Assembly (NCBI GenBank): GCA_036405135.1
Contig: DASWYF010000037.1
Coordinates: 90,016-154,015, forward strand
Length of the DNA: 64,000 nt
Reading direction: 5' to 3'
Source of the DNA: Verrucomicrobiia bacterium
GTDB lineage: Bacteria > Verrucomicrobiota > Verrucomicrobiia > Limisphaerales > JAEYXS01
Shown piece after piece: positions 16,839 to 50,625 of the stretch. The notes beneath the pieces were generated by a model that worked only from the letters and a program-made list of their open reading frames with translations, had not been told where the DNA came from and searched no databases. The stretch's first letter is position 1. Every line of letters begins with the position of its first letter. The translations under genes were made by a program, and so were the position numbers.

Positions 16839-16980
16839 TGGAGGCGAGGGGCTGAATTGCTCGAGAACCCATGCATTCAGAAGAAAAACCGGGAAACCGA
16901 ATTTTTCCAAGGAATCAAGCTGTATCTCATCTAATCCTCCTTAATCAGGTTTCAGAAATTTGATGCACGTTTTGGGGCGC
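16839..16980 (+). repeat. Intergenic repeat family, copy A
   Basis: It has a tRNA-3-prime-end-like core TGGAGGCGAGGGGCTGAATTG (16839-16859). GGAATCAAGCTG starts at 16911, followed by TAATC motifs and a degenerate tandem TTTGATGCACGTTTTGGGGCGC (16959-16980). By eye it aligns along its length with copy D. Confidence 0.75.
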
Positions 16981-17118
16981 ATTCACCGGGCCAGCTCTGA
17001 TATTTTAGAGCGGCTAAAAAAATGATGTTGCCGGGTGGAGTGAGGATTTTTTGGGTTCTGACGAAACTTTGGCGAGGAGCAGGGTTGGCAATCGATCATT
17101 CCATAAGTGTAGGCAATC

Positions 17119-20100
17119 TCACATCAGTATTTCATCCACCTTGGTCGCCTTTCGGAAGCGTGCTGCTGGCGAGTTGTGGCTGGCAAGCTCAGCAAAATGC
17201 GCTTCGCCACACTTGATCTTAGCGCTTTCTTTGTCGCGAAGGTCATCAGTGAAGAGGCTGCTCTTGGTTTCAACTACCAAATAAAGCCGTTCTGTGCCGT
17301 CTCTATCCACTAGGATTGCCCAGTCCGGGTTGTAGGGACCCAGAGGTGTGGGAACTTTGAACCAACTTGGGAGCTTGGCGTAAACCTTGATAGCTTCGTT
17401 TTTTTCCAACTGCTCCGCGAAATTGCGCTCGGTATCGGATTGGTAGATGACCTGTTCGTGGACGCTCTTGCCAGCATCAATCATGGACTTCAGATATCCG
17501 GTCAGTTCTTCGGTCTCGAAAAGTTGCTGGGCGTAGTATTCCTCGGCTCCGATACGCTGGTATTTGATGCCGTCCACCAGTGCCATACGCTTACTGCGGT
17601 TGATGATTTCGGCGGCCAGTTCGATGAACTGTTGGGGATTGCGTTTGAAATCATCAAGCCGCCCGCTGTTCACGAGGATGCGATGGATGCTTCGACGAGT
17701 AAGCGAGGTTTTGTCCTGGAGATCGGTAAGGATGTCCGGCAACTCGATGTCGCCTTCGTCGAGGGTCACCGGGGCCGAGGTGGCCGTCTCCTTCGTGTCC
17801 ACGCCCGAACGTCCGATGGCGAGGTCGGCTTTACGCCATTGCAGACGGGTCTTGGCGATCAGGAAATTCGGATCTTTCAAAGCCTTAATGCAGGTCGTCA
17901 GCAAGGCTTCGTTGTCGAACTGCACGCGGTAGGTGGTTTTATGTTTGATACGATCCCACAATGCTTTGAACTCCGCTCCTTGCAGCACCGCCTGACGAGT
18001 CTTCACCTGCTTGCGCTCGTCGGCGTTCTTTATCTCCAGGCGTCCGGCCAGCTTGCGTAGGATTTCCTTCACCTGCGGCAGATGATCTGTGAATGGTTCC
18101 GGCAAGGTTAGTGTCCCGTTCTTGAGGGCCGTGCGCAGGGCGTCCTGTATTTTGCCTTGAGCGTTGACGAGGCCGGTGGTTCTTAGATGTTCCCACAGGA
18201 CTTTCGATTGGTCAAAACCCAGGGGCGCGGGCTGGCCGTCGGCTCCTGTGACGGTAATGCCGGCAAATTGATGCGTTTCCACGATCCCGAAACGGATGCC
18301 CGTCTCTTCCTCGATTTCTTTCTGGAGGCTCTCGGCGAACTGTTCGTAGCTCTCGGTCGCGATGACTGTCAACGTGTTGACCTCGAACCCGCGTAAGCGT
18401 TCGCCTTGCTGGTTCACGCAAAGACGCAGGCCGCGTCCAATGGTCTGGCGACGTTGCTGTTCGGAGGACATCTCACGCAGGGCGCAGATCTGGAAGACGT
18501 TCGGATTGTCCCAGCCCTCGCGCAGGGCGGAGTGGGAAAAGATGAACTTTAGCGGCGTCTCGAAGCTCAGGAGCTTCTCTTTGTCCCGCATGATGAGGCT
18601 GTAGGTGTCGTCGTCGGCTGCTGTGGTGCCCTTGGTGTCTTTCAATACTTCTACTGTCTTTGACCCAATTTTCTTCTTATCGACCGAAAAATACCCATTG
18701 TGAACCTCCTCAGCAGAGGTTTTCATATCCACCTCCTTGAAAAGACTTTGGTAGTCGGGGTGCTTCGCTAGCCGGCGGTATTCCTCTTCAAAGATGCGGG
18801 CGTAGTCACCCTTCACCGGGTTGCCTTCGGCATCGTATTGCCGGTATTTCTCCACGGAATCGATGAAGAACAGGCTCAAAACCTTTATGCCTTGCGGCGC
18901 GAGGCGCTTTTCCTTGTCGAGGTGCTCCTTGATGGTGCGGTGGATCATCTGGCGTTGCACCGTCAGCGGTTCTACGTCGCCGTAGGCTTGGCCAGGGCGA
19001 AGGTATTGTTCACCTCCCGGATAGCGCAGTTCGAGAAACTCATCACCTTTGGCTACTCGGATTTCGCCCACCCGGCAGTCGTGATACACAGGCCGGCCCG
19101 TGGTCATTTCCAGATTATCTCCATCCTGCACAATCACTTCTTTGCGTGTTACGCCAGTTTTTGCCTGCGTATCCAGCTCCACTTTCGCGGTGATAACGCC
19201 TTTCTTGTTGCTGACCGACAGCAAGCGCACATACGGCTTGTTGTGTCCGCCTTCCACCGAGGCAGCGGCCACCTCGATCTGCTTCACCAGCTTGCGCTCG
19301 TAAGCGTCCACCGCATCGAGTTTAAAAATCATGTGATGCGCCTCGCGCGGCGTCGCGGAGTAGCGCAGGTTGCAGAGCGGGTTCATACGCTCCATGGCCT
19401 TTTTGCCTTTGCCGTCCAGGCCGCCTTCGACGCTTTGCGGCTCATCCACGATGAGGATAGGACGCGTGGCCCGGATCAAGTCGATGGGTTTTTCGCCGCC
19501 GGTCTTCTCGCTGGGGCGATACATCACGTTCTTCGATTTCTCGCGGCGGGCCGCTTCGTCTGCTTCCTCGGACTGCGCGGCCTGTTCGTCGCCGAACTTG
19601 TTGATGGCGCCGACGGTCATCACCATGATCTGGATCTGTGGACTGGTGGCAAAGTTGCGCACCTGTCCCAGCTTCGCCGAGTCATACAGGAAAAAGTCGA
19701 ACGGCACGCCCGCATAGAGCGCCTTGAGGTGTTCCGCCGCCGTCTCGATGGTGTGATACACGCCCTCTTTGATCGCCACCGAGGGAACCACGATGACGAA
19801 CTTGGTGAAGCCATAGCGTTTGTTCAGCTCAAAGACGGTGCGCAGATAGACGTAGGTCTTCCCGGTGCCGGTCTCCATCTCCACGGTGAAATCGCCCGAG
19901 GCGAGCGAGGCCGAGGGCGCAAGGCCGTGGCGGAGCTGGATGGCATGCAGGTTCGCTAACAGCTCATCATCCAGCAGGGTCAGCCGGTTGCCGATGCCCA
20001 GATCATTTTCGGCAAAGGCCATGCGGGCCTGAGCGTCAGCTCCGTCCCGAGTTACGGTGAACTCCGTGCGGCACATCTCCTGGCCGCGGAAGAGATCGCA

Positions 20101-20190
20101 GACCGCTTCGATGGCTTGGATCTGGTAGTCGAGGTTGGGCTCGAAGTGCAGTTTCATGGTGGTCACTTCCAGAGGGTATGATTGCGCCAA
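17119..20190 (-). CDS. res: Type III restriction enzyme Res subunit (helicase-nuclease)
   Basis: 1023-aa ORF. It has a Walker A motif METGTGKTYVY and a DEAH-like motif ILIVDEPQSV. The C-terminal PD-(D/E)xK-like segment is YNPDWAILV...LYLVVETKSS. It is co-oriented with a Mod-type methylase. Confidence 0.9.
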   Translation of the reverse strand: MAQSYPLEVTTMKLHFEPNLDYQIQAIEAVCDLFRGQEMCRTEFTVTRDGADAQARMAFAENDLGIGNRLTLLDDELLANLHAIQLRHGLAPSASLASGDFTVEMETGTGKTYVYLRTVFELNKRYGFTKFVIVVPSVAIKEGVYHTIETAAEHLKALYAGVPFDFFLYDSAKLGQVRNFATSPQIQIMVMTVGAINKFGDEQAAQSEEADEAARREKSKNVMYRPSEKTGGEKPIDLIRATRPILIVDEPQSVEGGLDGKGKKAMERMNPLCNLRYSATPREAHHMIFKLDAVDAYERKLVKQIEVAAASVEGGHNKPYVRLLSVSNKKGVITAKVELDTQAKTGVTRKEVIVQDGDNLEMTTGRPVYHDCRVGEIRVAKGDEFLELRYPGGEQYLRPGQAYGDVEPLTVQRQMIHRTIKEHLDKEKRLAPQGIKVLSLFFIDSVEKYRQYDAEGNPVKGDYARIFEEEYRRLAKHPDYQSLFKEVDMKTSAEEVHNGYFSVDKKKIGSKTVEVLKDTKGTTAADDDTYSLIMRDKEKLLSFETPLKFIFSHSALREGWDNPNVFQICALREMSSEQQRRQTIGRGLRLCVNQQGERLRGFEVNTLTVIATESYEQFAESLQKEIEEETGIRFGIVETHQFAGITVTGADGQPAPLGFDQSKVLWEHLRTTGLVNAQGKIQDALRTALKNGTLTLPEPFTDHLPQVKEILRKLAGRLEIKNADERKQVKTRQAVLQGAEFKALWDRIKHKTTYRVQFDNEALLTTCIKALKDPNFLIAKTRLQWRKADLAIGRSGVDTKETATSAPVTLDEGDIELPDILTDLQDKTSLTRRSIHRILVNSGRLDDFKRNPQQFIELAAEIINRSKRMALVDGIKYQRIGAEEYYAQQLFETEELTGYLKSMIDAGKSVHEQVIYQSDTERNFAEQLEKNEAIKVYAKLPSWFKVPTPLGPYNPDWAILVDRDGTERLYLVVETKSSLFTDDLRDKESAKIKCGEAHFAELASHNSPAARFRKATKVDEILM

Positions 20191-21137
20191 TCGGGCGGCA
20201 GGCCCATTTCGGCAAGCGGGATTTCAGGAAATTCGTCGAACAAGGCGAAGAGCCGGGTGCGCCATCTGGTGGTGGTGCTTACCTTGCCCAGCCAGAAATG
20301 GCAGACGGTCAGCATCAGTCCCACGCGGTCATTGGCGAAACCTGGTTGAACATGCCAGTCGGGATTCTTTCTTTTACCTGGCACGGATGGCTTCACGCCG
20401 AATACACGATTCCAGATACGGGCGTGATGCGCACAGGCATTGCGCAGCGTGAAGATGGCTTTTGTCCATGACAGCAATTGCTCGTCCGTGAACTGGTAGT
20501 TTGCCGCCACCTGTTTGATCAGGGACCGGTCAATTCCATAGGCGAGCTGCATTACGGTCTCACATGTCATGAGCTCACAGGCCATCCAGAGGGGCAGATA
20601 TTTGTGATCGGTACCGTAATTTATGTCGAAGTGTTTTACGAAAGCATCGCTTGAACGACGTTTTTCGTTGGAGAGCTTGCCCAGCCAAAGCTGGTATTCA
20701 GTCCTTTCCAGTCCCTTTAGACTCACCAGGGATTTCAAATTCCGCAAGCAACGTGACCAGAGCGCCTTTTTTTTGAACCCGGGAAGATTCCCCTCATTGA
20801 GGTACCCAAACGGGCCATGCACACGGACAAAGGTGAAAACGATTTGGGTTCGCACCGAAACTTCAATCCGCTCGATGGCGTCCAGCAGCAACATCCGCAG
20901 ACGCCGGTCAAAATTGTATCGCCGCCAAACGAGGTTAAAGTCGGTGCCGGGATGGAAAGTGTCGGTGGGTTTTCCGGCGCTGTCTCGAATCCGGAAAGGG
21001 TATAAGTAACCGCTCAGCCGGTAGTAATTCACCGCCTTGAGCCGGGCAATCAGCTCGTCACGATTGGCGACCAATCCCCTTTTTAGAAGCAGATCGGCTT
21101 GGTCTTCGAGTGAAAGCGCGTGCTTGGCATAAATCAT
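20163..21137 (-). CDS. Abi_2 (AbiD/AbiF-like) abortive infection family protein
   Basis: 324-aa ORF with the Abi_2-type N-terminus (LLKRGL...LKAVNYYRLSGYLYPF). There is a good Shine-Dalgarno sequence (AAGGTGG) upstream. Its 3-prime end overlaps the res start by 28 nt. Confidence 0.8.
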   Translation of the reverse strand: MIYAKHALSLEDQADLLLKRGLVANRDELIARLKAVNYYRLSGYLYPFRIRDSAGKPTDTFHPGTDFNLVWRRYNFDRRLRMLLLDAIERIEVSVRTQIVFTFVRVHGPFGYLNEGNLPGFKKKALWSRCLRNLKSLVSLKGLERTEYQLWLGKLSNEKRRSSDAFVKHFDINYGTDHKYLPLWMACELMTCETVMQLAYGIDRSLIKQVAANYQFTDEQLLSWTKAIFTLRNACAHHARIWNRVFGVKPSVPGKRKNPDWHVQPGFANDRVGLMLTVCHFWLGKVSTTTRWRTRLFALFDEFPEIPLAEMGLPPDWRNHTLWK

Positions 21138-21174
21138 TCGCTGCCACCTTTCATGGAAAGCGTCGAATCAGGGC

Positions 21175-21217
21175 AAAAAAAGAGCCGCCGAATTGCGCAT
21201 GCAAGCAGAGGCGCGGC
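21175..21217 (-). terminator. Terminator-like hairpin plus T7 run between mod and abi
   Basis: On the minus strand, GCCGC...(inner TTGC-ATGC-GCAA)...GCGGC is followed by TCTTTTTTT. The plus-strand A7 is at 21175-21181. It lies in the 217-nt mod-abi gap. Confidence 0.4.
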
Positions 21218-21354
21218 AGCTATGATGTAGATACATTGCCTTGTCACTGGCCACTCGTCAATACCTGATCCAATCACGCAACGCATGTTCTCAAGGGTTG
21301 TTTCCTGAGTGTTTTCCGGGATTCCCCTAAGTATCTTGTTGGCAGTCAGTTGCA

Positions 21355-23283
21355 TCAAAGGCTGCGAACATTGCCCAAGCCGTATTGCTGGAGGATGGCG
21401 GCGAGGTTGGTTTTGGCCACGTCGTTGGCGAAGGCGCTGTCGCGGAAGACGACGGTGGTTTCGCCCGCGGGTTTCAGCTCTTTGTGCCAGGCCACGAGGC
21501 CGAGGGCCAGCGGCTCCACTTCGGCTTGCGGGATGGATTTGGAAAGGCAGACGAGCAAGGTGCCCGCGCCGATGCTGTGGACTTCGTGGGTGCCGATTTT
21601 GCGCGTCTCGATGGGCACGCAGAGGTCGAGGCCGAGCTTGAGGAGCAGTTCGAACAGGATGTCCTGCTCGGTGCGGTTGGTCTTGAGGTGCTCCACGGAG
21701 GCTTCGAGGCTCTCGGCGAGGTTCGCGCGGTTCGGGTCCCACTCGCGGATGTTCGTGGAATCCAGCTTGAAGACGCGGAAGCCGAGATCGCCAGCGAACA
21801 GCGAGTTCTCGTCTTTGATTTTCTTCCCAGCACGGCGCAGGCGCTCCCGCGTTATGTGGGCGATGGTTGGGTAGTCCTTTCGCTCAGTGGGCTCGGGTAA
21901 CTGGACCAAAATGTATTTTCGATTGCCGTTGTCCAACAAGTTTTGATTTAGAACTGCGTGCGCCGTTGTGGCGCTTCCACCAAAGAAATCCAAGACGATA
22001 TTCTCTTCATCGGGGATCGTACCAAGGCTCAGAATTTTCGAGATTAAACGAGTGGGCTTCGGTGTTTGAAAAATATCTGGCGCATCCGGAAACAGAGTTT
22101 GAATTTCTTTTTTTGCTTCGTCGTTGTGTCCCGTTTCGCTCCACAACCAAATCGTCTGCGCAACCACCCCTTCCACGTCACTCAAGAAGCGTTTGTATGC
22201 AGGAACCAAATTTGTGCCGTCAACGCCCCACCAAACGCGCTTATCTTTGCAGTTCTGCTCGTGTTTTTCTTTGCTGTATCGCCAAACAGCTGACTTATTC
22301 GGCCAGATCACGTCACCAGTGTTTGGTTGAATGATGGAGTAGTAAAGATTAGGGCGCTCTTCTGACGTCTTGTTACATTTGTAATTATCAGCACGCCACA
22401 ATCCGCGAGGGTCGTTATCTGGGTTCTTGTAAGCCGCGTTCGTTTTTTCACTTCTTTCCTCACGTGATAGAATTGCCTCCAACTTTCCATTCTGCCCAGT
22501 TGGCCTCAGCTTCGCGTAAACTAGCAGGTAGTCATGCGATGGAGAGAAATCGATTGTGTCGTTAGCTGGTGCGTATTTTTTCTGCCACGTAATACATCCC
22601 AAGAAGTTTTCTTCACCCAATATCTCGCTGCACAGCTTTTGCAGATTATCTATTTCATTGTCGTCGATGCTAATAAAAATCACTCCATCATCCCGCAAAA
22701 GATTTCTCGCCAGCTTGAGCCGCGGATACATCATGTTGAGCCAGTCGGTGTGGAAGCGGCCGGAGGCCTCGGTGTTGGACGAGAGTTTCTGGCCGCCTTC
22801 GCCAGTCTGGCCGGTGATTTCCAGGTAGTTCTTGATGTTGTCCTGAAAGTTGTCGGGATAGACAAAGTCCTTGCCGGTGTTGTAAGGCGGATCAATGTAG
22901 ATGAGCTTCACCTTCCCGGCGTAGGATTTCTGGAGGAGCTTGAGCACTTCCAGATTGTCCCCCTCGATCATGAGGTTCTGGGTGGTGTCCCAATCCACGC
23001 TATCCTCCGGGCAGGGCCGCAATGTGCCGGTAGAGGGCGTGAGGGCGAGCTGGCGGGCACGGCGTTTGCCATGCCAGTTCAGGCCGTATTTCTCCTCCGC
23101 TTCGGTCACGGTCCGGTCCCCCACAAGCTGCTTCATTACATCAAGATTCACCGCCACGCCCTCCGGCCCCTCGGTGAGCAACTCAGGGAACAGGGCCTTG
23201 AGCGCAGCCAGGTTCTCAGCCACCAAATCAGGCGACTTGGTCTCAGGATCGTTCACGGTCAGTTTCTGCATCGGCATGAACAT
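21355..23283 (-). CDS. mod: Type III Mod-like site-specific DNA methyltransferase (N6A/N4C, beta class)
   Basis: 642-aa ORF. The catalytic motif LIYIDPPYNTGKDF precedes the SAM-binding motif DFFGGSATTAHAV. Confidence 0.9.
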   Translation of the reverse strand: MFMPMQKLTVNDPETKSPDLVAENLAALKALFPELLTEGPEGVAVNLDVMKQLVGDRTVTEAEEKYGLNWHGKRRARQLALTPSTGTLRPCPEDSVDWDTTQNLMIEGDNLEVLKLLQKSYAGKVKLIYIDPPYNTGKDFVYPDNFQDNIKNYLEITGQTGEGGQKLSSNTEASGRFHTDWLNMMYPRLKLARNLLRDDGVIFISIDDNEIDNLQKLCSEILGEENFLGCITWQKKYAPANDTIDFSPSHDYLLVYAKLRPTGQNGKLEAILSREERSEKTNAAYKNPDNDPRGLWRADNYKCNKTSEERPNLYYSIIQPNTGDVIWPNKSAVWRYSKEKHEQNCKDKRVWWGVDGTNLVPAYKRFLSDVEGVVAQTIWLWSETGHNDEAKKEIQTLFPDAPDIFQTPKPTRLISKILSLGTIPDEENIVLDFFGGSATTAHAVLNQNLLDNGNRKYILVQLPEPTERKDYPTIAHITRERLRRAGKKIKDENSLFAGDLGFRVFKLDSTNIREWDPNRANLAESLEASVEHLKTNRTEQDILFELLLKLGLDLCVPIETRKIGTHEVHSIGAGTLLVCLSKSIPQAEVEPLALGLVAWHKELKPAGETTVVFRDSAFANDVAKTNLAAILQQYGLGNVRSL

Positions 23284-23315
23284 AAAGTAGGAAGAAAAAC
23301 TGATTTAGGCGAGAT

Positions 23316-25067
23316 TTAGCCCCCATTATTTTCATCGTCTGTGTCCTCCTCTTCCTCATCGAGGTCGGGCATGGTATCGGTGTCCACTTGCTGCGGATTG
23401 GGCATAGGCCAAACTTCCAGGGCTGTGTCAGCCAAACGTTCACCGCGCTGCACAATCGTTTCTTCATTCCAGGTTTCGAGCTGGCCAAGGCCCTGATTAA
23501 GTCGAAGAGGGCTTTGTGCAAATCCACCCGGTAAATCGCGCTTGGTGAGAAACGGGTGATCCCGATACTCGGAATTGTAACCAGTCAGTGTTAGGTTACC
23601 TAGAGTATGCAGCCATTTATCCTGCACAGTCTGCCAATCGGGGCCGAGAGCGGCGATCCACTCGGGTTTAAGCACTTTATTCTGCGGCAAGATATGTTCA
23701 ATCGTGAGTCCTTCAATGGATACAGGCTCCTTGCGATCATAATTCTCGAAGCGTTTGAGGATGAACCGCAAGGGACGTAAACTGTACAGATGGTTGCGGC
23801 AGAGAGCATGGCGGAATTCAGCATCATCCGGAAACCTTGCCCTGCCTGAAAGGCTTGTGAAACGGGCTTGTATGGCGTCTAAGTAATTATCCTTAACAAG
23901 GTTTTGCGCAAACGCAGCAAAGGTTTTGTTGAGAACGTTGGTTGGGACGCCACAGACGGCACGGCGCAGCACGAAATTCTCAATCAATCGGACGGAGGAC
24001 AGCATGTCGACTCGGGACAGCTGACCCTTACTATAATCATGGTACAATTCCAGAAGCAGTGGGTAAGCCACGTCGACCTTGAGTTCACCAAGATCGGCAA
24101 AGGCGGCAGCAAGGGCCGGATCTTTCTCCTGCCCCAAAGCCATGGCGGCATAGTGGCCGGCATGGGCATAGATATCTGCCAGCACCTGCTCAACGCCAGC
24201 AGCCTGTTCAGCGAGATAGGCTTTGAACTCATTGTAGACCGCGCTGATTCTGGGGATTTTACGTGTTTTTAAAGTCAGATAATGGCGCATGAATCCATCA
24301 AACGCTTGCCGATATGCCTCTTGTCCAAAGCGCTCTTCAATAGGACGCCAATAGCTTTGATAGAGCCGGGTCTGTTCGTGAGGTATTTGCCCCATGAGGA
24401 CGAAGTTGCGGATGAGATCGGCCTGGCTAAGCGCTAGGCCAGTCGAATTCATGCTCTCAAAGATAAGCTGAGGGTTGTCTTGCCCACGTTGCAAGGCGAC
24501 TTCAACTATCATCAATTTGGCAAGACCACGGCACAGATTCCGAAGGCCTTTTCCATCCAAACCGCCTATTTGACGGGTAAAATATTCAAAATTTTCCATG
24601 ACGCGTATGGACTTAGCGTCTGGAATCGGTTGCTGGCCAGTGAGAGCCAGCATCGTCGTCTTATCAGTTTGGGTAAGTATGAGTTTATGGCGGCGCTCAC
24701 CCGTTTCCTCGGGATCGAGCAAATAGTAGTTTCGGATTTTGCGTGCCGTGAAGCCATCCTCGGGCTCTTCTTCTCCAATGGTACGTGCCAAAGCTTCAAG
24801 CAAAATTGTTGCAGTGGTTACGCGCTGTTGTCCGTCAATGATCAGGAGTGCTGAAGGATTTCCCACGGTCTGTAAATCGGCCTCGACATAAACTATCGAG
24901 CCGATGAAATGAGCATTCACCTGAGGCAGTGAACCAACGCGAAGAATATCATTCCAAAGCTGTTCACAGTTTTGGAGCGACCATGAATAGGTGCGCTGGT
25001 AAATTGGAATGGTGAGCTGTGGCGAACTACGGAGGAATTTTAGCAATGGTAGAGCTTCGGCTTTCAT
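23316..25067 (-). CDS. GmrSD-like type IV restriction protein (DUF262 + DUF1524)
   Basis: 583-aa ORF. The N-terminal DUF262 motifs are IPIYQRTYSW and IIDGQQRVTT. The C-terminal HNH-like DUF1524 motifs are IEHILPQN and HTLGNLTLTGYN. Confidence 0.85.
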   Translation of the reverse strand: MKAEALPLLKFLRSSPQLTIPIYQRTYSWSLQNCEQLWNDILRVGSLPQVNAHFIGSIVYVEADLQTVGNPSALLIIDGQQRVTTATILLEALARTIGEEEPEDGFTARKIRNYYLLDPEETGERRHKLILTQTDKTTMLALTGQQPIPDAKSIRVMENFEYFTRQIGGLDGKGLRNLCRGLAKLMIVEVALQRGQDNPQLIFESMNSTGLALSQADLIRNFVLMGQIPHEQTRLYQSYWRPIEERFGQEAYRQAFDGFMRHYLTLKTRKIPRISAVYNEFKAYLAEQAAGVEQVLADIYAHAGHYAAMALGQEKDPALAAAFADLGELKVDVAYPLLLELYHDYSKGQLSRVDMLSSVRLIENFVLRRAVCGVPTNVLNKTFAAFAQNLVKDNYLDAIQARFTSLSGRARFPDDAEFRHALCRNHLYSLRPLRFILKRFENYDRKEPVSIEGLTIEHILPQNKVLKPEWIAALGPDWQTVQDKWLHTLGNLTLTGYNSEYRDHPFLTKRDLPGGFAQSPLRLNQGLGQLETWNEETIVQRGERLADTALEVWPMPNPQQVDTDTMPDLDEEEEDTDDENNGG

Positions 25068-25816
25068 AGTGATTTTAACAGCAACTGCATTTGAGATTCT
25101 AGACGGTTCACGGTCAGGTTTATTTCCACGCGACGGTTAAGCTGCTTTTCCTTATCGGCTTGGGCGCGGAGATTGGTGATTTCACGGCTGAGGCGTTGAA
25201 ACTCAGCTAACGCTACGCGACGACTCTCGGCAGCAGCAGGATCAAGAGCAGGCGTGAATTTTCCGGTTTGGCTGGCGGCAGCATATGTCTCAAAGGCCTC
25301 GATCCAGCCCTGATAGAAAGCATGGAGGTGCTGGCGGGGCTGAGTGGAGATGTTAAGGGCAGTCAGAAACGCAGAAGTGGTGGGAGTGTTTTCCGGTAGG
25401 TCTGCGGTGGTAAGCGGGCCATCGAGCACCGTCTGCCCGGATTGGCCCTGCGACCATCGCAAGTGAGCCAGAGAGAGCGTCAAACCAGCGGCCTGAGAAA
25501 CAATGAGAAAGAGTGGGTACGGGATGGAGCGATGGATCAATTCGGAAAGTCGGGCAGCTTTGGCCCCCTCGCGAAGGGTAAGCGAGAGCACGGCGATCTC
25601 CAGATATTCGCGGGTATCATCACGGTAGGTGGGCACGCCGATGGTGGCTGGCTTGAGTGCGGCGATCCAGAGCAGCTCTTCAATGCCTTCATTGATCTGG
25701 CGCTTGTCCGCAGCCGTGGGCGCTCCGTTTTCCACGAGATGCTTTTTGGGCACACGCTGATGCACGAGGGCATCGGCGGGAAGCTGCAGGGCGGCTATGA
25801 CGGTGTCTTGGGGCAT
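25064..25816 (-). CDS. DUF4391 domain protein
   Basis: 250-aa ORF. Sequence pattern (LEIAVLSLTL...IHRSIPYPLFLIV) and position between an SNF2 helicase and a methylase are both typical of DUF4391. It overlaps the next gene by 4 nt. Confidence 0.7.
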   Translation of the reverse strand: MPQDTVIAALQLPADALVHQRVPKKHLVENGAPTAADKRQINEGIEELLWIAALKPATIGVPTYRDDTREYLEIAVLSLTLREGAKAARLSELIHRSIPYPLFLIVSQAAGLTLSLAHLRWSQGQSGQTVLDGPLTTADLPENTPTTSAFLTALNISTQPRQHLHAFYQGWIEAFETYAAASQTGKFTPALDPAAAESRRVALAEFQRLSREITNLRAQADKEKQLNRRVEINLTVNRLESQMQLLLKSL

Positions 25817-25819
25817 GGA

Positions 25820-28800
25820 TTACGAATTTCCCTCAATCGCCTGAACGCAGGCTTCACGAAAACCGCAATCGCGGCAGCGTCTCGTCCGTCGGTCAAGCAT
25901 CTCCCGGTTTCCGAAGCAGCCAGGACGGGGCAGGTCCTGTCCGGATTGTGGCGTGAGTCGACACGCTGACCATTTGAGCCACCCTCCTGCGGTTTGCATA
26001 AGTCTCGCCAAATGTTGAGTGGCCGTGCCGGCTGATTCGATACCCAACCCCAAGACATGCAATGCGGGGCCTAACGCTCCCAGGAATCCGACTGCGCCAA
26101 CAACAAAAACCGCAAATTCAGCCCAGAAGCACCCATCACCATCACCCGAGTGAACTACGTCGATCTGTACTCCGTCAGGTTTCTTGACGGACCCCAGGAT
26201 TTGACTGAGAGCATTGATTGTTTCCTGAATCGCATCTTGTTTATCCTTTTGTGAAAATGAGGCCTTGTCCGGCTTCTCAAACTTGAATGTGAAATTCGCC
26301 AGTTCCAGACGGGTGTTGTTGTGAGCGGAGCCAGATGTTGCGGGAAGGATCACGAGGGAGGCGACGACTTCGAAGTCGTTGATGCCGGCGAACTCTCCTT
26401 TGATGGCATGGGTGCCGCCAGGTGTGAAAAGGCTGGCGATGGCGCGTTCCTCCTTTTTCCCGATGACAGAAGTGACTGCCGCAGAGAGGAGCTTGCGGGC
26501 CTGGGACATATCCGCGCCGTGCCGGGTGGCTTTATCAAAGCGGGCATTGGCTTCTGCGTCTGGCAGATCGCGCCCGACTGATATTCGTTTAAGCCGATCA
26601 AGCACCGTTTTGGCCTGGGTGAAGGGCAGCAGCACTGTGCCATCATCTCCCACGTGGACGAGGTAATGAGGGGCGAGCGGATAACCCGGTTCAAATGATT
26701 TCGTGGCCGCTTCACCTTCTGCGCGAAGGCAGAATACAATGCCTGGCGGGATTCCAGTTTCCGGCGAGGTGGTGACGGAAAAAGTGCCCAAAGGAAGGGT
26801 CTCGAGTTTGCCGGGGTGAGTTTTGAGATAATGTGCGAGATCAATCCGAAAATCGGTCAGCGTGAGGTCAGCTATCGAGACACCGCTAGACAGATCTTCC
26901 AGATCGATTACGGCGTCCTGGAGTTTGAGGAGCTGGGTGCGGCGGTATTCCAGATCGTTCATCTGGTTGCCTGAATGTTGCTCAATCAGGTTTTCCTCGC
27001 CGGTGGCAGAAATATCGAGGAGGACCATTCGACCGGAAACGCGCTGTTCCAGATTGATATACTCTTCCAGCTCAATATTTGGCCAGAAATTGACCAGCTG
27101 GATGCTCTTGTTCGGAGAGCCGATACGGTCGATACGGCCAAAGCGTTGGATGATCCGGACGGGATTCCAATGAATGTCGTAGTTGATGAGGAAATCGCAG
27201 TCTTGGAGATTTTGGCCTTCGCTGATGCAATCGGTAGCGATAAGGAGGTCAACATCCCCCTCGGCAGTGACATCATCAGGGCGTTCCTTGGAACGGGGAG
27301 AAAAAGCCGTGAGAATGCTTGCCAAATCCTTCCGCAGGTTTGGAAGTGTGGTCTGGTTTCGACCCGCGCCAGTGACTAACGCTGAGTGCAAGCCGAGTTC
27401 TGACTTCGCCCAGCCGGCCAGTTCCTCATAGAGGTATTGGGCGGTATCGGCAAAGGCGGTGAAAACGATCACCTTGCGATTACCGGGATTTAACGGCTGG
27501 CGGACTTTTTGGGTTATAACGCCACGCAAGGTTTCAAGTTTCGCATCGCGAGCAGCACCAACTTGATGTGCAGCAGAATACAGAGTGGCGAGGCGGTTGC
27601 GGTCCTCGATGAGGTCCTGCCTCCAGCGGACCAGATCGATATCCTGCACCAATACTTTGACTTTTCGGCCGACCAGCAGGCTTTCGAAAGCAGGGTCATC
27701 GATTTCGAGGTCTTCGATGTCAATCTCCTCCACCGCTTCCTCATGCGCTTCGATTTTTTCCAGTGTGGCCTCAACATCTGCCAGCTGGCGCCTTACCGTG
27801 AGGGCGAACGATGGCACCGCACTTTCCATGCGTTTGAGCACATTGACTCGGATGAGGTGGATGAGGCTCTCTTCACGGTCAACTTGACGGAAGAAGCTCT
27901 CACCGCCACGGATTTGGGTGCTGTATTTCGCATCGTAAGCAGCCTGTTTGTGGGGCAAGACGTAGCGAAGGGGCGCATAAGCAGCCAAGGTGAGTCGCCG
28001 AATCTCGTTGTTGATCTCACGGATGGAGCGAAATTCCCCCGCGCGGTCCACATCCGGCTTGTAGTTGATCGGTTTGAGACGCTCTGGGAATGTGCCGGTT
28101 TCAGTCGTCCCGTAGTATTTTTCGATATGTTTGCGGGAGCGGGCTATCGTAAGCAAATCAAGCAATTTGAAGTAATCGAACCCAAGCATTTCAATAAGCC
28201 TGGATGGTGTGCGTTCATTTTCCCCAGAAGCCAGCCAGCGGTTGAATTGAAGTTGGGCCTTCCGGACAGTGGACTCGATGCTGCTGATACCTTGATCAAA
28301 CAGGGCCGTGTCGTCGCCCTCAGTAACGAACGCAATCTGGTTCTTTAGGTCGGCGAGGCGGTTGTTAACCGGAGTGGCCGAGAGCATGAGGACACGGGTC
28401 TTCACCCCTTCCTTGATAATACGACGCATGAGGCGGTCGTAGCGTGTCTCGCGGTCTTTTAAGGAGGCTTTATTGCGGAAGTTGTGCGACTCATCTATGA
28501 CGACAAGGTCGTAGTTGCCCCAGTTTACGTGTGAGAGTTCGATATCACCGGATTTACCGCCGTCCCTGGAAAGATCGGTATGGTTGAGAACATCATAATT
28601 GAATCGATCGGACGCTAGGATGTTTCGGCGATCATTCGCCTTGTAGAGCGTCCAGTTATCCCGCAGACGCTTTGGCACCAAGACGAGCACTCGGTCATTC
28701 CTCAGTTCGTAGTATTTGATGATGGCAAGTGCTTCAAACGTCTTACCCAGACCAACGCTGTCAGCAATGATGCAACCGCCAAGTCGCTCAAGTTTGTCTA

Positions 28801-29524: not shown

Positions 29525-30153
29525 TGTGTTAAATTGGAATAAAGAGCGGAATGTCAGGAGTCTGCTTGCAAACCTCTAATAGCAGCAATGCATAATACAT
29601 CTCAGGCGGATTCCTCAATCCGAGTGCTTGCTGGAAACACTGGATGCTTTCGGACTTCGAGTGTCATTCCTGCAGTAGCCTGTTGGCTAGGTTTGGCCCT
29701 GAATCCGTTTTCTGCTGTAACGCTTTCCATGGCGATAATCCTTTCCTGATTCTGATAGCATCCTCCTTGGGTACAACAAGCCTAGATTCTATTGATGCGC
29801 AGGGGGGGGCGCGTTGGCTCAAATTAAAAGACACCGCAGGTGGAAAGTGAGGTTGAGAGAAGCAGGCGTTGAGTCAAAGTGGTTGTTACCCGCGAGGGAC
29901 AACGAAATGAGTGAACAAATCCGGAAGAAAGTGATGAGACGCCAATGACCTGACGTTCACGCTTTGAAAACTCAAGTTTCACCGCAAATCACTACTGTCC
30001 CGATCTTAACTGGACAGCATTGAAAATAGAGAATAATTGTAATGGTTGTTTTTTCTATTTCATTTACCGCCCATGCGATCAGTTTGTTTCACCTTTTGAA
30101 CAGAATCTGAAACTACTGTGATTTGAGCGACGGATATCGGGAGTTTCAGTGAC

Positions 30154-30872: not shown

Positions 30873-30879
30873 ACCTCTA

Positions 30880-38430: not shown

Positions 38431-38557
38431 CGGTCAAATGCCGAATATTCTTTAAAACAGAATACGGCCGTATCTTGACCGAGCGTAGCCCGGAAGTGTC
38501 ATGAGAAGGTAAAAACTGGCAGGGAGAATTTGCGCCAGCAGGGTGAATCGGCAGGAG

Positions 38558-39295
38558 CTATATCTCAGGAGAAAGTTCGGCCACCGAGGGGACGCGTACG
38601 ATGAGGTAGCCCAGGTTGCGTTTGGTTTCTATCGTAACCTCCTTTCCGGCAATGGATTCCAGCTTTTTCCTCAGAGAGACGACGTAATTGTCCACCGTGC
38701 GTGAATTGGGCAGGTTGTTGAAGCCCCAAACCGAGGCCAGCATGCGGTCACGGTTTACTGGCACCCCTTCGTTGAGGAGTAGTAACTTCAGAATTCCCGC
38801 TTCTTTGGGATTCAACTCGACCTCATGTCCTTCGCTGGACAAGCGAGCATTGGCGGGGTCAAAGGTAGCTTTGCCCAATTGATAGTTCGCGGTGCTTTGT
38901 TGCTCTTTTTGGCGCCTTCTAAGGAGGGCTTCCAGTTTGGCTTGCAGTAAACGTAGCGGAAGCGGCTTGGTCCAATAGTCATCTGCCCCGACCTGCAAGC
39001 CGCCTACTTGGCTGTCTAAATCATTTTTTGCTGTTAGCAGTACAATCGGCGTTTGGTTGCCCAGGTCGCGCAGTTGTTTGCAGATGTCAGCACCGCTGCG
39101 ACGCGGCAATATCCAATCCACCAAGATCATGTCCGGCAAATTGTTCAACGCGCTCTGCAGGCCGGATTCGCCATCGGATGCTTCCAATACGAGGTAACCG
39201 AGATTGGTCAGATAATCCCGGACGGCCATCATCTGGACCGGGTCATCCTCAATCAGCAAGATGCGCTTCTTGGTTAAGGGCTGCATGTACGCCAT
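38558..39295 (-). CDS. OmpR-family response regulator
   Basis: 245-aa ORF. The REC segment is ILLIEDDPVQ...ILVDWILPRRSG. The C-terminal winged-helix segment is RTVDNYVVSLRKKLE...LGYLI. Confidence 0.9.
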   Translation of the reverse strand: MAYMQPLTKKRILLIEDDPVQMMAVRDYLTNLGYLVLEASDGESGLQSALNNLPDMILVDWILPRRSGADICKQLRDLGNQTPIVLLTAKNDLDSQVGGLQVGADDYWTKPLPLRLLQAKLEALLRRRQKEQQSTANYQLGKATFDPANARLSSEGHEVELNPKEAGILKLLLLNEGVPVNRDRMLASVWGFNNLPNSRTVDNYVVSLRKKLESIAGKEVTIETKRNLGYLIVRVPSVAELSPEI

Positions 39296-39423
39296 AAATT
39301 TCTATTTCCTTATATCGGCAGCCGTAAAGGGAAACTTTTGACAAATCTGTGACCATTCTGAGGTTTCCTAATCGGCCTAATCATCCGTTAGTAGAGTTGA
39401 GGCGGGGAATCCGCCAAGATGAC

Positions 39424-41043
39424 ATGAATACTTACGCTGAAAGCCCGTTGACAGAGAGAACTGAAGGACGCTCGATTTGTGATGGAGCCAGTTTGTGCGA
39501 TGGCGTCAACCAACATTCCGAGATCGGGAATGATACATCCATTCTGTTCATCCCGAAGATACTGTTGATCGACGATGAACCGGTGATACATGAGGTCATC
39601 GAATCAATCTTATACCGGGAGGGGTATGAATTGCATCTGGCCAGTGATGGCATCACCGGTGCGGAAAAAGCCAAGAGCCTTCAGCCCGATGTCATTTTGC
39701 TGGATGTGATGCTGCCCGGCATGGACGGGTATGAGGTGTGTCGAAACTTGCGACGCTCACCGGAACTGGCCGCCATCCCGGTGGTGATGATGAGCGCACT
39801 CTGTGACCGTAAATCCCGGTTGGCCGGGCTGGAGGCGGGAGCTGATGAATTCCTCGAAAAACCGATCGACAGTCTGGAATTGAAGATACGGCTGCGAACC
39901 TTGACGCGTCTAAACCGTTTCCGGGTGCTCAAAGATCAGCGTGAACTCATGAACTGGATGGTTGAGGGCATGGCTGATGGCGTGGTGATCCAGTTCGCTG
40001 ATGGGCACCTGCACTATGCCAATGAAGCAGCCCGGCATTGGCTGTTTCTAGATGCAGAGGAAGAACTAGGGGAGGAGCGGTTGCCTGAATTGCGGGACCG
40101 TCACTACCGGTGCAAAGGCATGCTGGAAGAACAGCAAGCCAGTTATGAAGAGCAATGGGTGTGTCCGGAGTCACCTACGGCACCGGAGTATGTTCTCGAG
40201 GTGCGCTGGCGATACGCCGAGATGAATGGTCAGCGCATCAAAGTAGGGCTGATGCGTGATGTGACAGAAATGATTGCCTTTGGCCGGATGAGCATGGTTT
40301 TTCAAAACCTGGTCTCTCACAAATTGCGGACTCCGTTGAACATCCTTAATGGGGCCTTTCAAGTGATGCAGATGGAGATCCCCGAAGTCGCCCAATGTGA
40401 ATGGGGACGCATGGCTGGGGGAGCCATCGAGAGTCTGATTGATTTGAACGACTCATTGCTGAGGTTCGTAGATCCCAACTTGCGGCAAAATTTCACCGGA
40501 CTTTATGAGGTTTCCAAAATTGAAAGTTGTCTGCAGCGGATAACTACGCAACTACGTCTGCTCCAAACACCCGAACTTCGGGTGGATTCTACCGCTATGT
40601 CTCAGGCGCTGCCGCTTAATGAAACAGGAGTGGAATTGCTGCTCCTGATCCTTATTTCCAATGCGATGAAGTTTCATCCCAAAGGCGATCCCAGAATCAC
40701 GCTGAGCATTAGCCAATCCGAAGCTTCAGATCTGATGATCAGAGTGTGTGATGACGGAATGCACCTGAGCGCAAAGCAGCTCAAATCGGTTGCCCGTCCA
40801 TTCTTTCAGGCGGAGAAATATTTTACTGGAAACGTAAATGGCTGGGGGCTGGGTCTCTCTTTGGTGAAGGAGTTGATGGATGCTTTCTCCGGGTCGTTTA
40901 CGCTCGCAAACCGTAAGGATCAGCATGGTATCGAAGCTACCATAACACTGCCCGGGAGTCCTCAGGTTCAAATTCCGTCGCGAAATTGTTCTTTGCCTGT
41001 TGCCAACTTGGTTCATGCCCAAGAGTTGTTGATCAAGTGGTAG
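39424..41043 (+). CDS. Response-regulator receiver fused to histidine-kinase-like domain
   Basis: I prefer the ATG at 39424 over the upstream GTG. The REC segment is ILLIDDEPVIHE...ILLDVMLPGMDG. It has a variant H-box LVSHKLRTPLNIL and the ATPase motif NGWGLGLSLVKEL. Confidence 0.8.
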   Translation: MNTYAESPLTERTEGRSICDGASLCDGVNQHSEIGNDTSILFIPKILLIDDEPVIHEVIESILYREGYELHLASDGITGAEKAKSLQPDVILLDVMLPGMDGYEVCRNLRRSPELAAIPVVMMSALCDRKSRLAGLEAGADEFLEKPIDSLELKIRLRTLTRLNRFRVLKDQRELMNWMVEGMADGVVIQFADGHLHYANEAARHWLFLDAEEELGEERLPELRDRHYRCKGMLEEQQASYEEQWVCPESPTAPEYVLEVRWRYAEMNGQRIKVGLMRDVTEMIAFGRMSMVFQNLVSHKLRTPLNILNGAFQVMQMEIPEVAQCEWGRMAGGAIESLIDLNDSLLRFVDPNLRQNFTGLYEVSKIESCLQRITTQLRLLQTPELRVDSTAMSQALPLNETGVELLLLILISNAMKFHPKGDPRITLSISQSEASDLMIRVCDDGMHLSAKQLKSVARPFFQAEKYFTGNVNGWGLGLSLVKELMDAFSGSFTLANRKDQHGIEATITLPGSPQVQIPSRNCSLPVANLVHAQELLIKW

Positions 41044-41132
41044 TATGCTTCAAACAACCCACTATAAAAACGACTATGATTAAAACCAACGCTTTGGATT
41101 TAGCGAGTAAAGACCAGTAGCTCGAAGCAGTA

Positions 41133-41160
41133 ACGGACCAATAAAATTGGTGTCCGTTTT
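41133..41160 (+). terminator. Candidate intrinsic terminator after the 39424-41043 gene
   Basis: ACGGACCAA-TAAAA-TTGGTGTCCGT forms a 6-bp plus 3-bp stem with a 2-nt bulge, followed by TTTT. It lies ~90 nt after the stop codon. It overlaps the first TTGGTG motif of repeat copy C. Confidence 0.35.
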
Positions 41161-41330
41161 GGTGTCTGTCGAGGCTCTTGGGGCAGCTAACCCTTGCTGC
41201 GCAAGCTATTGGATTTGGAGGCGAGGCCGGAATCGGCTGCCTTTAAGACAGATCAACGCGAATCCGGACGTATCTATCCGAATCCGATCGTAGATACTTG
41301 GTATGGGTGTTGGTATTCGTAAGATGCCTG
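41144..41330 (+). repeat. Intergenic repeat family, copy C (diverged, rearranged)
   Basis: TTGGTGTCCGTTTTGGTGTC lies at 41147-41166 and the tRNA-3-prime-like core TGGAGGCGAGGCCGGAATCG at 41216-41235. A TATC/AATCCG motif region follows, then TTGGTATGGGTGTTGGTAT at 41298-41316. Confidence 0.6.
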
Positions 41331-41372
41331 CTGTCTATATTCTAATCCGATCAGACCTGTTTTGACATTTAA

Positions 41373-47928: not shown

Positions 47929-47930
47929 GG

Positions 47931-50258: not shown

Positions 50259-50489
50259 CGATACGACAGAGAAATTGAGGCTAGGAACAGTCTGCCTGAA
50301 TCAATTTACCAAAAAGCACAGACTGCTTCCGGGGATAAGAAAATTACAAAGAAGAGGGGGATTGGCTGAGCGCGAAGCAAGGTTAAAGCTTAGTCTGACG
50401 TCGTGTTGGGGCATAAAGACGGATGTCCATCTTGGTGTCCTTTGGAAGGCTCTTGCCTCCTAAACCGTTGCTGCACACGCAGTTGGAAT

Positions 50490-50625
50490 TGGGGGCGAGG
50501 GTCGGAATCGCTCGAAAACCCAAGTTTTCAAACGAAAAGTCGCACTTTTCTCCAAGGAATCAAGCTGCATCTGATCTAATCCGACTTAATCCGGCTTAAG
50601 CATTTTGGTGCACGTTTTGGTGCAC
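50490..50625 (+). repeat. Intergenic repeat family, copy D (best preserved)
   Basis: The core TGGGGGCGAGGGTCGGAATCG lies at 50490-50510. GGAATCAAGCTGCATCTGATCTAATCCGACTTAATCCGG starts at 50556. A perfect tandem TTTTGGTGCACGTTTTGGTGCAC lies at 50603-50625. Confidence 0.8.

Follow-up and report, generated by a model that had tools for sequence, protein, structure and literature searches.

The four direct copies of a composite repeat in this DNA are probably decayed att junctions of a tyrosine integrase that targets the stretch from the T-loop to the 3′ end of a tRNA-Cys gene on the minus strand. This reading explains the layout of 34 kb of the window (the whole stretch of 64 kb analysed here), in which a single tRNA-Cys attachment site would have gathered three stacked units, namely the defence island, the signalling cluster and the PSCyt operon. 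For a phylum that has been little studied, it also supplies exact limits of genome plasticity that can be tested. A preliminary description of this DNA had preferred a tandem build-up of islands at a single tRNA att site, and the tRNA end, the breakpoint, the integrases and the block limits support that view. The following features are referred to below, where copies are named A to D, blocks E1 to E3, and loci compared with the window carry L numbers.

16839..16859, minus strand: core of copy A, a degenerate version of the last 21 nt of tRNA-Cys (CAATTCAGCCCCTCGCCTCCA, 3 mismatches)
16860..16985, minus strand: P arm of copy A, with a degenerate tandem at 16958-16980, the motifs GGATTAG and GATTAAG, and a GGAATCAAGCTG box (nhmmer, E 7e-30)
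16986..30153, minus strand: block E3, a defence island with type III Res and Mod, AbiD, a GmrSD-like protein, DUF4391 and an SNF2 helicase (Pfam, PADLOC)
30154..30340, minus strand: C-terminal remnant of a tyrosine integrase, ~60 aa, with an HxxR-like and a catalytic Tyr region (translation, PF00589)
30383..30871, minus strand: IS630-family fragment, the N-terminal HTH part of the transposase, with the IS end at ~30871
30872..30978, minus strand: copy B, P arm only, with the tandem ATTTGGTGCAC-C-TTTTGGTGCGC at 30951-30973 (nhmmer, E 5e-31)
30979..41140, no strand assigned: block E2, a two-component cluster with hybrid kinases and an OmpR-type regulator, without integrase (Pfam)
41141..41215, minus strand: P′ arm of copy C, with the tandem TTGGTGTCC-G-TTTTGGTGTC, a short hairpin and a CACCAA pair at 12-nt spacing (nhmmer P′ profile, E 6e-23)
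41216..41235, minus strand: core of copy C, CGATTCCGGCC-TCGCCTCCA, with 1 mismatch and 1 deletion relative to the tRNA end
41236..41372, minus strand: diverged P arm of copy C, with GGATTAG, GGATTCG and ACCAACACCCATACCAAG; it begins directly after the DUF1501 stop and is kept in L011
41373..50414, minus strand: block E1, an operon with PSCyt2/PSD1, PPC, PSCyt1-WD40 and DUF1501, without integrase
50415..50489, minus strand: P′ arm of copy D, with TTGGTGTCC at 50432-50440 and the hairpin CTGCACACGCAG (nhmmer)
50490..50510, minus strand: core of copy D, CGATTCCGACCCTCGCCCCCA, with 1 mismatch relative to the tRNA 3′ end of L011
50511..50630, minus strand: P arm of copy D, with the perfect tandem TTTTGGTGCAC-G-TTTTGGTGCAC at 50603-50625, CTAATCC, CTTAATCC and a GGAATCAAGCTG box
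50644..51780, plus strand: IS630-family element ~14 nt beyond the arm of copy D; it has 32-nt terminal inverted repeats and a TA duplication, and its transposase is frameshifted

The preliminary description had placed the four copies at these sites, all in one orientation and each intergenic, and this was confirmed by blastn (E 1e-8 to 1e-26). Copy A aligns with copy D at 76.9% identity over 147 nt (E 1e-26), and copies B and C align with copy D at 82.6% over 69 nt (E 3e-15) and 75.3% over 89 nt (E 1e-8), respectively. A repeat search grouped 16902-16985, 30895-30978 and 50547-50630 into one family (D4) with 70-83% identity. Arms are 77-83% identical to each other; the cores have 1-3 mismatches and are not mutually identical. 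We compared matches in the window to the numbers expected. The sequence GGAATCAAGCTGTATCT with up to three mismatches matched three times (0.16 expected), and CACCAA pairs at 12-nt spacing are found only in B, C and D (3 versus 0.04 expected). With up to three mismatches, the 21-nt core matched only A and D (0.00 expected); the match in C needs one deletion to be allowed. The single motif TTTTGGTGCAC is not enriched (20 matches with up to two mismatches versus 21 expected), and only its tandem pairs are special. Searches with nhmmer profiles revealed no additional arm or P′ copies in the 64-kb window.

On the minus strand, up to three modules make up a copy, namely a P arm, a core and a P′ arm, and a full site of ~215-230 nt has the look of an attP. 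The P arm contains two GTGCACCAAAA sites that lie 12 nt apart and ~100-112 nt before the core, together with two GGATTA(A/G) motifs at -82 and -72. The core comprises 21 nt (CGATTCCGACCCTCGCCTCCA), and the P′ arm carries GGACACCAAAA sites ~72-83 nt past it. The CACCAA pairs of the window, 12 nt apart, stand at -112/-100 (P) and +71/+83 (P′). We presume that the GTGCACCAAAA pairs are arm-type sites to which the integrase would bind and that the GGATTA(A/G) motifs are sites for accessory factors; strand exchange would then fall in the core, the last 21 nt of the tRNA. At locus L033, CTTCAGT repeats occur 12 nt apart at -141/-129/-117, and its P′ side has an exact CTTCAGT at +83 and the near copy TTTCAGT 12 nt earlier. 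Judged from these sequences, arm geometry appears to co-vary with the locus, with the same spacing and a different motif in L033.

The modules are unevenly distributed, as D and C read P-core-P′, A reads P-core and B is a P arm only. The parts that had been listed as shared by every copy do exist, but no tRNA-like core was found in B, and A lacks the left-hand 75 nt that are common to C and D. In C, the listed GGAATCAAG, TAATC and tandem are present as a diverged version, and a clean tandem (TTGGTGTCC-G-TTTTGGTGTC at 41147-41166) lies on the opposite side of the core. The limits of two copies also had to be extended: D reaches further left, to ~50415, and C reaches right to the DUF1501 stop at 41373. 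To the left of A, towards a pyruvyl-transferase gene, the DNA is unrelated to the other copies, and we thus read A as a terminal P-core-B′ junction.

Another function that could be assigned to intergenic repeats is that of a cis-regulatory element or a small-RNA gene, i.e. a promoter, a terminator or a structured RNA; this is almost certainly not the case here. Although the plus strand of copy D folds well (-76.7 kcal/mol, z -4.45) and several G-U pairs would make this fold strand-specific, copy A folds no better than shuffled sequences on either strand (z 0.16 and 0.32). Furthermore, across five sequences the hairpin formed by P′ and core shows 0 compensatory pairs, its covariation term is positive, and there are no Rfam matches; a structured RNA was rejected on these grounds. 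The arrangement GGAAT-N16-TAATC may bear a vague resemblance to ECF-type promoters. However, the copies have no common placement with respect to genes: A and C are each enclosed by convergent gene ends, B follows a stop codon, and D stands upstream of a divergent pair at a distance of over 260 nt. Two further candidates were discarded. Readings of the TTGGTGCAC tandem as sigma-54 or sigma-70 sites were rejected by hand, since the spacing does not fit and that strand has no genes further downstream. An integron cassette array with attC sites was rejected because the blocks are multi-operon units of 9-14 kb and the repeat is ~215-230 nt long, with a tRNA core and no covarying structure.

The origin of the core can be seen in L011, a locus whose DUF1501 protein is 98% identical. 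Here, the D site continues as CGTCGG TTCGATT CCGAC CCTCGCC T CCA, which is a canonical T-stem and T-loop followed by the acceptor strand, the discriminator U and CCA. This tRNA lies at the contig end and is visible as its last 29 nt only; the core corresponds to the final 21 nt of this fragment, which occupies the site orthologous to D. The pairs G1:C72, G2:C71 and C3:G70 and the base U73 agree with the known identity elements of tRNA-Cys. In viral contigs, an exact scan for the 25-nt tRNA end gave 0 matches and a relaxed pattern gave matches. The TTCGANTCCNNNCCTCGCCTCCA scan of these contigs returned seven matches, two of which are intact tRNA-Cys(GCA) genes. Three others are, on our reading of the sequences, tRNA-Cys 3′ halves with a GCA anticodon loop; ARAGORN calls no tRNA at these sites. 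Thus, wherever the 3′ signature was found in an intact tRNA of the viral contigs, this tRNA is tRNA-Cys(GCA).

In addition, eight junctions in four genomes (A, C and D of the window, C of L011, one each in L007 and L034, and two in L033) all leave the tRNA at GGTT|CGATTCC, and the sequences upstream of this point are of at least four kinds. The claim that the core represents a tRNA 3′ end therefore holds, based on the T-arm and acceptor end in L011, the tRNA-Cys(GCA) signature and the common break in the T-loop. No intact tRNA was detected in the 64-kb window, and the target tRNA-Cys gene is predicted to lie beyond 64 kb on the minus strand. The sole contig with the 2772-aa protein stops at window position ~64,300.

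The common breakpoint also bears on the idea that the copies are relics of duplicated tRNA-Cys genes with their flanks, or that homologous recombination or rearrangement formed the junctions without an integrase. Such an origin would fit the poor general synteny among strains, the loci L008 and L009 that keep the PSCyt operon without any att part, the dead integrase as the only one present, and the differences between the cores. However, duplication would leave longer or variable tRNA fragments, whereas each copy, across four genomes and beside different partners, retains just the final 20-21 nt, with the break at an identical nucleotide. To either side of the core, the arm motifs keep fixed distances, and they change with the locus (the window versus L033), and an integrase fragment is found directly beside the core in L033 and L034 and next to B. 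We thus regard relics as unlikely.

The integrase remnant beside B matches positions 127-169 of the 172 in PF00589 (E 9.5e-5), with a score that, for this fragment, is under the gathering cut-off. Its upstream part is cut off by the IS630 fragment, and the window contains no intact integrase. In L034, the core, a P′ arm (72% identical to that of D) and the start of an ORF follow each other within 200 nt, and the C-terminal piece of this ORF is a homologous integrase fragment. In L033, two cores that lie 10.5 kb apart enclose a homologous integrase fragment and a restriction-helicase gene. For the integrase fragment of L038, neither a core nor a tRNA was found nearby. L007 and L034 likewise contain the P′ arm of D, which in L011 has its orthologue in the DNA that follows the tRNA downstream. 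The gene content given in the preliminary description agrees with ours: A and B enclose a defence island with a dead integrase beside B (Pfam, PADLOC, PF00589), B and C a two-component cluster, and C and D the PSCyt operon (Pfam). Taken together, core, arm motif and spacing provide a candidate attP anatomy for an uncharacterised Verrucomicrobial integrase family.

The repeats might instead be a dispersed non-autonomous repeat of the MITE-like or REP-like type that resides in spacers, with the tRNA stretch being part of a tRNA-derived SINE-like element. We consider this very improbable, even though the copies lie between genes, are short, have a higher AT content than the surrounding DNA and are truncated to varying degrees, and IS630 adjoins two of them. 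The copy ends differ among copies and show no terminal inverted repeats or target duplications. An inverted-repeat search near B and D detected the terminal inverted repeats of IS630, a weaker pair flanking that IS and one unrelated pair. Moreover, the copies have a single orientation and form the exact borders of functionally coherent blocks, their modular pattern (P-core-P′, P-core and P) and single T-loop breakpoint fit site-specific recombination and not transposition, and the same core adjoins homologous integrase fragments in other genomes. We also scanned 185,579 genomes and 241 million metagenome records with GGAATCAAGNNGNATCTNNNCTNATC, a pattern of 20 specified bases that fits A, B and D; this resulted in only chance-like matches, two in the genome contigs and one in the metagenome contigs, two collections that do not include the source genome. 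Exact records of the window DUF1501 protein and of P0001 were not found. A MITE or regulatory repeat, which had been proposed as an alternative, hence finds no support in terminal inverted repeats, in a fixed position relative to gene starts or in copies within the collections.

The IS630 elements that had been described beside B and D are indeed present and are unrelated to each other at the DNA level. The possibility that the repeat is an IS630 end was rejected, as the terminal inverted repeats lie outside the repeat and the two IS have no DNA similarity. The element at 50644..51780 is a passenger outside the repeat. At B, an IS630-associated deletion would account for the loss of the core, of the P′ arm and of most of the E3 integrase gene including its N-terminus; B is reduced to a P arm because the IS630 fragment took the place of the core.

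According to the tandem integration at tRNA-Cys that we favour, each successive element would have entered either the tRNA or an att copy that was already in place. The array would then read: tRNA-Cys (beyond 64 kb), E0, D, E1 with the PSCyt operon, C, E2 with the two-component cluster, B, E3 with the defence island, A and the chromosome. Successive integration would explain why the internal junctions C and D read P-core-P′, and the distal end A would read P-core-chromosome. E1 is bounded by D and C and E2 by C and B, such that both have att on either side and no integration or transfer genes, as in a CIME, with mobilisation only putative. Neither block encodes recombinase or relaxase domains (Pfam), and we observed no mobility genes and no GC anomaly in E1, E2 and the visible part of E0. 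As they lack an integrase, E1 and E2 resemble att-flanked passengers such as cis-mobilizable elements. The cores and arms have drifted, and the array is thus probably old and largely fixed; movement at present would need either an integrase supplied in trans or homologous recombination from one repeat to another. What we infer here is the order in which the elements integrated and the current activity or inactivity of the array.

When comparing the window to L011, we find that E1 is 90.2% identical over 9266 nt (50510 to 41252) and that homology resumes at the C core, while the DNA flanking E1 is unrelated. The homology of E1 between the two strains ends at the two cores. The PSCyt operon is present without copy C in L004-L007 and without any att part in L008 and L009. 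This pattern suggests that the operon may be an old chromosomal neighbour of the tRNA and not imported cargo. For E2 and E3, no clean empty site was recovered at the loci of pyruvyl-transferase orthologues; the relative with a 94% identical pyruvyl-transferase shares that gene alone and has no tRNA and no core. Synteny among these Verrucomicrobiae strains is generally poor. The HXXSHH/PSD pair to the left of A was considered as an ancestral neighbour of DUF1501, as in L008, and rejected, since the proteins are paralogues with 29-35% identity. Three de novo contigs stop inside or beside the repeats (L007, L011, and L010/L037 near B), which is expected of repeated DNA. The repeats thus explain why short-read assemblies of these strains break at these points.

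Operon-sized blocks without integrase, for instance the PSCyt/DUF1501 operon or the two-component cluster, could, more speculatively, be exchangeable 'mega-cassettes', each with a full attP-like site as its frame, that a tRNA-Cys-specific integrase would move in trans. We put this forward as a rather doubtful extension. If it were true, the tRNA-Cys locus of these Verrucomicrobiae would act much like an integron, as a platform on which ordinary operons for metabolism and regulation are exchanged. The 9.3-kb PSCyt block is conserved from core to core in two strains whose neighbouring DNA is unrelated, which is compatible with such exchange and equally with vertical descent and insertions on either side.

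The mechanism proposed here is not new, as the stacking of islands at integrase sites is a well-known route of bacterial genome growth. In lambda-type attP sites, a core is flanked by P and P′ arms with sites for the integrase (arm-type) and for accessory factors. The repeats described here are similar in being composites of ~215-230 nt with a central core and short motifs of the same orientation at fixed distances in both arms. They differ in that the arm sites are predicted only, the arm-binding N-terminal domain of the integrase being missing from the window, and in that the core is a tRNA 3′ end whereas the lambda-type core is an intergenic site.

Tandems of ICEs, IMEs and CIMEs have been described at tRNA genes, for instance ICESt1/ICESt3-CIME in Streptococcus thermophilus and IME tandems at tRNA-Lys (PMC5704250). 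As in the window, direct repeats of the target 3′ end separate the elements, internal junctions are flanked by arms on both sides, units without integration genes keep both att sites, and decayed integrases and IS insertions occur (PMC5704250). In contrast, our case stems from an uncultured Verrucomicrobiae MAG with tRNA-Cys as the target and no conjugation or mobilisation genes visible in the window. Its passenger blocks are ordinary-looking operons (PSCyt/DUF1501 and two-component), for which excision and cis-mobilisation are only putative.

In Dehalococcoides, many islands are arranged in tandem downstream of one small-RNA gene, ssrA, with direct repeats of its 3′ end of ~20 bp, and several units without integration modules were proposed to be CIMEs (PMC3146451). 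The insertion point in the T-loop and additional conserved sequence around each repeat are common to both systems (PMC3146451). There, a serine recombinase (DsiB) acts together with tmRNA as the target (PMC3146451), whereas here we find a tyrosine recombinase remnant (PF00589) and tRNA-Cys, with conserved flanks of more than 100 nt on both sides and tandem arm-type repeats. Lastly, the part of the Klebsiella pneumoniae study drawn on here describes asparagine tDNA as hotspots where different islands integrate (PMC4891358); compared to that part, host, tRNA and cargo differ in the array presented here.

The window contains four copies of a repeat (A, B, C and D), all of them intergenic and in the same orientation, as the preliminary description had stated. 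A repeat search of the window placed 16902-16985, 30895-30978 and 50547-50630 in a single family with 70-83% identity. With blastn, A, B and C aligned to D with 76.9% identity over 147 nt (E 1e-26), 82.6% over 69 nt (E 3e-15) and 75.3% over 89 nt (E 1e-8), respectively. Together with the gene map, these alignments confirm the copies, with some refinements. Diagnostic sub-motifs of the repeat are much commoner in the window than in shuffled sequence, and nhmmer profiles built from the copies found no further copy in the 64 kb. The repeat is modular, which becomes evident when it is read on the minus strand. The claim of a composite repeat thus stands for the number of copies but not for parts shared by every copy, as A lacks the P' arm and B consists of the P arm only.

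Modules of the complete site and copies in the window
P arm, ~120 nt: GTGCACCAAAA in duplicate with 12-nt spacing (-112 and -100, counted from the core); GGATTA(A/G) at -82 and again at -72; a CAGCTTGATTCC box
Core, 21 nt: CGATTCCGACCCTCGCCTCCA
P' arm, ~75 nt: a short hairpin; GGACACCAA(AA) sites between +71 and +83
Copy D, 50415-50630, minus-strand reading: P arm, core, P' arm
Copy C, 41141-41372, minus-strand reading: P arm (diverged), core, P' arm
Copy B, 30872-30978: P arm only
Copy A, 16839-16985, minus-strand reading: P arm, core, then unrelated DNA

The sites in the P' arm are oriented like those in the P arm. Pairs of CACCAA at exactly 12-nt spacing occur three times in the window (in B, C and D) versus 0.04 expected, and the single 11-mer is not enriched in the window. 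We consider TTTTGGTGCAC and TTGGTGTCC candidate binding sequences for the integrase family to which the remnant at 30154-30340 belongs. Within 50432-50516 of the window (and also in C, in the related-strain contigs L011 and L007, and in L034, a carrier of an integrase homologue), 13 nt of the P' arm form an imperfect inverted repeat with the core, GGCTCTTGCCTCC versus GGGGGCGAGGGTC, and all mismatches are G-T compatible on the plus strand. This inverted repeat is partly conserved in the five sequences, without compensatory changes, and might for example offer an extra core-type site. That the repeats act as a regulatory element or RNA is unsupported: D folds unusually well (z -4.45), but A does not, the conserved hairpin lacks compensatory changes, and the position relative to genes is inconsistent. 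No Rfam family was found in the window.

ARAGORN detected no tRNA in the window. The decisive comparison for the origin of the core is L011, whose DUF1501 protein is 98% and whose DNA is 90% identical to the window. At the position of D, L011 continues from the P' arm into TGGAGGCGAGGGTCGGAATCGAACCGACG, where the contig ends. The reverse complement, CGTCGG TTCGATT CCGAC CCTCGCC T CCA, reads as a textbook T-stem, T-loop, acceptor strand, discriminator and CCA, whereas D has no more of this than CGATTCCGACCCTCGCCCCCA, beyond which the P arm takes over. Scanning viral contigs for the acceptor signature yielded two intact tRNA-Cys(GCA) genes and three matches resembling the 3' half of tRNA-Cys, GCA anticodon loop included, at which ARAGORN calls no tRNA. 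The signature includes G2:C71, C3:G70 and U73, the classical identity elements of tRNA-Cys. Because of the tRNA end in L011, the signature matches and these identity elements, the core is the 3' end of tRNA-Cys, in line with the earlier suggestion of a tRNA-3'-like core.

A common breakpoint, between GGTT and CGATTCC, at which the sequence departs from that of the tRNA, is found in A, C and D of the window, in C of L011, in D of L007, once in L034 and twice in L033; the sequences upstream of it are of at least four kinds. Homologues of the integrase remnant led independently to L033 and L034. In L034, a P' arm with 72% identity to that of D comes after the core, and ~110 nt past this arm an ORF begins whose C-terminal piece is a homologous integrase fragment. 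L033 has two cores (8961-8981 and 19508-19530) at a distance of 10.5 kb; between them lie a homologous integrase fragment and the gene of a type I-like restriction helicase. This is a second, independent island with the same tRNA-Cys core at its borders. The integrases of both contigs look fragmented because of many frameshifts, probably long-read errors. In the arms of L033, CTTCAGT replaces CACCAA at near-equal distances and with the same 12-nt period: it lies at -141, -129 and -117 in the P arm and, as an exact copy, at +83 in the P' arm, with the near copy TTTCAGT 12 nt earlier. A fixed geometry with a locus-specific motif is how arm-type integrase sites look, and we infer binding from this likeness.

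A MITE-like repeat, which had been proposed as an alternative, or a REP-like one is unlikely: the copies have neither terminal inverted repeats nor target duplications, they are truncated by module, share one orientation and one breakpoint, are associated with an integrase, and have no copies in the public collections scanned. Nor would the single breakpoint and the arm geometry be accounted for if the copies were pseudo-tRNA relics or had arisen by homologous rearrangement alone.

Separately, seven near-identical low-GC proviruses (L021:219-290; L018, L019, L024, L026, L027 and L028) carry ATTTTGGTGCACATTTTGGTGCAC, with nearly the motif and 12-nt period of copy D. A tRNA-Arg(CCT) precedes the site by 98 nt. 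The site also directly adjoins the stop codon of a 393-aa tyrosine integrase, whose gene contains inverted GTGCACC...GTGCACCAAA copies in its 3' end. The likeness is either coincidence or an arm-binding specificity common across phyla.

Close relatives of the window were gathered via the DUF1501 protein adjoining C; among them, L010 and L037 belong to the window's own strain. L011 matches the window with 90.2% identity over 9266 nt, from 50510 (D core) to 41252, and homology resumes over the C core after a 33-nt indel. The flanks are unrelated, with a tRNA (L011) versus the P arm (window) on the D side and an adhesin-like gene (L011) versus the P' arm and two-component cluster (window) on the C side. 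Thus, the PSCyt block would be a core-to-core unit. In L004-L007 (DUF1501 97-98% identical), copy C is absent and the operon borders immediately on a mandelate-racemase-family gene. Upstream of the operon, L007 retains the P' arm and core with another arm type, and an IS5-like element occupies this place in L004. In L008 and L009 (93% protein identity), att (attachment site) parts are absent. Because the operon occurs in these relatives without copy C or without att parts, it may have long stood next to the tRNA and been enclosed by att copies later, instead of having been brought in as cargo. No empty site for the two-component cluster or the defence island was found in the relatives compared. 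Short-read contigs assembled independently from related strains have ends within or beside att repeats or the tRNA (L007:1-130, L011:1-30, ends of L010 and L037); the repeats therefore break assemblies.

Between A and B lies a defence island (type III Res, Mod, AbiD, a GmrSD-like protein, DUF4391 and an SNF2 helicase). At ~30871, the end of an IS630-family fragment (the HTH part of a transposase) adjoins the arm of B, and behind it a minus-strand tyrosine-recombinase gene survives as its last ~60 codons (...YRYAWAER...GHNSKAMNRAYAK), which match PF00589 positions 127-169 (E 9.5e-5). The description of a defence island with a dead integrase beside B thus proved correct. Because the IS630 end cuts in at the arm and the integrase C-terminus remains behind it, an IS-associated deletion has removed the core and P' arm from B along with most of the integrase gene. 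This gene would have pointed away from B and into the island.

The IS630-family element beside D (50644-51780) is bounded by 32-nt terminal inverted repeats of 84% complementarity and a TA target duplication, and its transposase is split over two frames (50683-51399 and 51279-51749). It lies ~14 nt outside the arm, whereas the element at B cuts into the site; the two have no DNA similarity to each other. Two cases cannot show a target preference, and junction DNA may simply be a safe place for IS elements. L004 and L005 come from one strain; there, an IS5-like transposase (L004:1558-2400) takes the place of the D junction, upstream of the PSCyt2 gene, as another insertion at this spot.

Some further observations concern the surroundings of the array. 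A pyruvyl-transferase-family gene (15429-16787) has ~80% protein identity across Verrucomicrobiota and Planctomycetota; DNA homology with a 94% relative (L035) begins and ends almost exactly at the gene ends, which looks like a single gene moving horizontally or in very fluid contexts. Left of the array, a DndB-family (DNA-sulfur-modification-associated) gene (6297-7361) in a lower-GC patch (~47% GC at 6-8 kb) may mark another small defence islet. An AT-rich stretch of 1.2 kb (60312-61559, ~45-49% GC, no ORF >100 aa) between giant repeat-rich surface-protein genes (2772 aa and >900 aa) may be decayed DNA or another junction.

We propose that a tyrosine integrase recombined attP sites of elements with the T-loop-to-3'-end of tRNA-Cys and, later, with att copies already in place. 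The outcome would be the array E0-D-E1-C-E2-B-E3-A, where E0 lies beyond D, E1 is the PSCyt block, E2 the two-component cluster and E3 the defence island. Internal junctions would read P-core-P' and the distal junction A P-core-chromosome. The intact tRNA is predicted beyond the 64 kb on the minus strand, as a tRNA-Cys(GCA) with the 3' end GGTTCGATTCCGACCCTCGCCTCCA. Tandem accretion at a single tRNA att site, as suggested previously, is supported by the shared breakpoint, the tRNA core, the integrase association and the core-bounded homology. E1 and E2 contain no recombinases, the integrase of E3 is dead, and cores and arms have drifted between copies. The array is probably old, and probably mobile only via a trans-acting integrase or homologous recombination between the 80-150-nt repeats.

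The phenomenon is well known, and the array is a new instance of it, from Verrucomicrobiae and with tRNA-Cys as the site. Published cases include ICEs or IMEs accreted together with decayed elements and cis-mobilizable elements (CIMEs) (PMC5704250), and the tandem ssrA islands of Dehalococcoides (PMC3146451). The array described here resembles both cases, with E1 and E2 being without recombinases, as CIMEs are.
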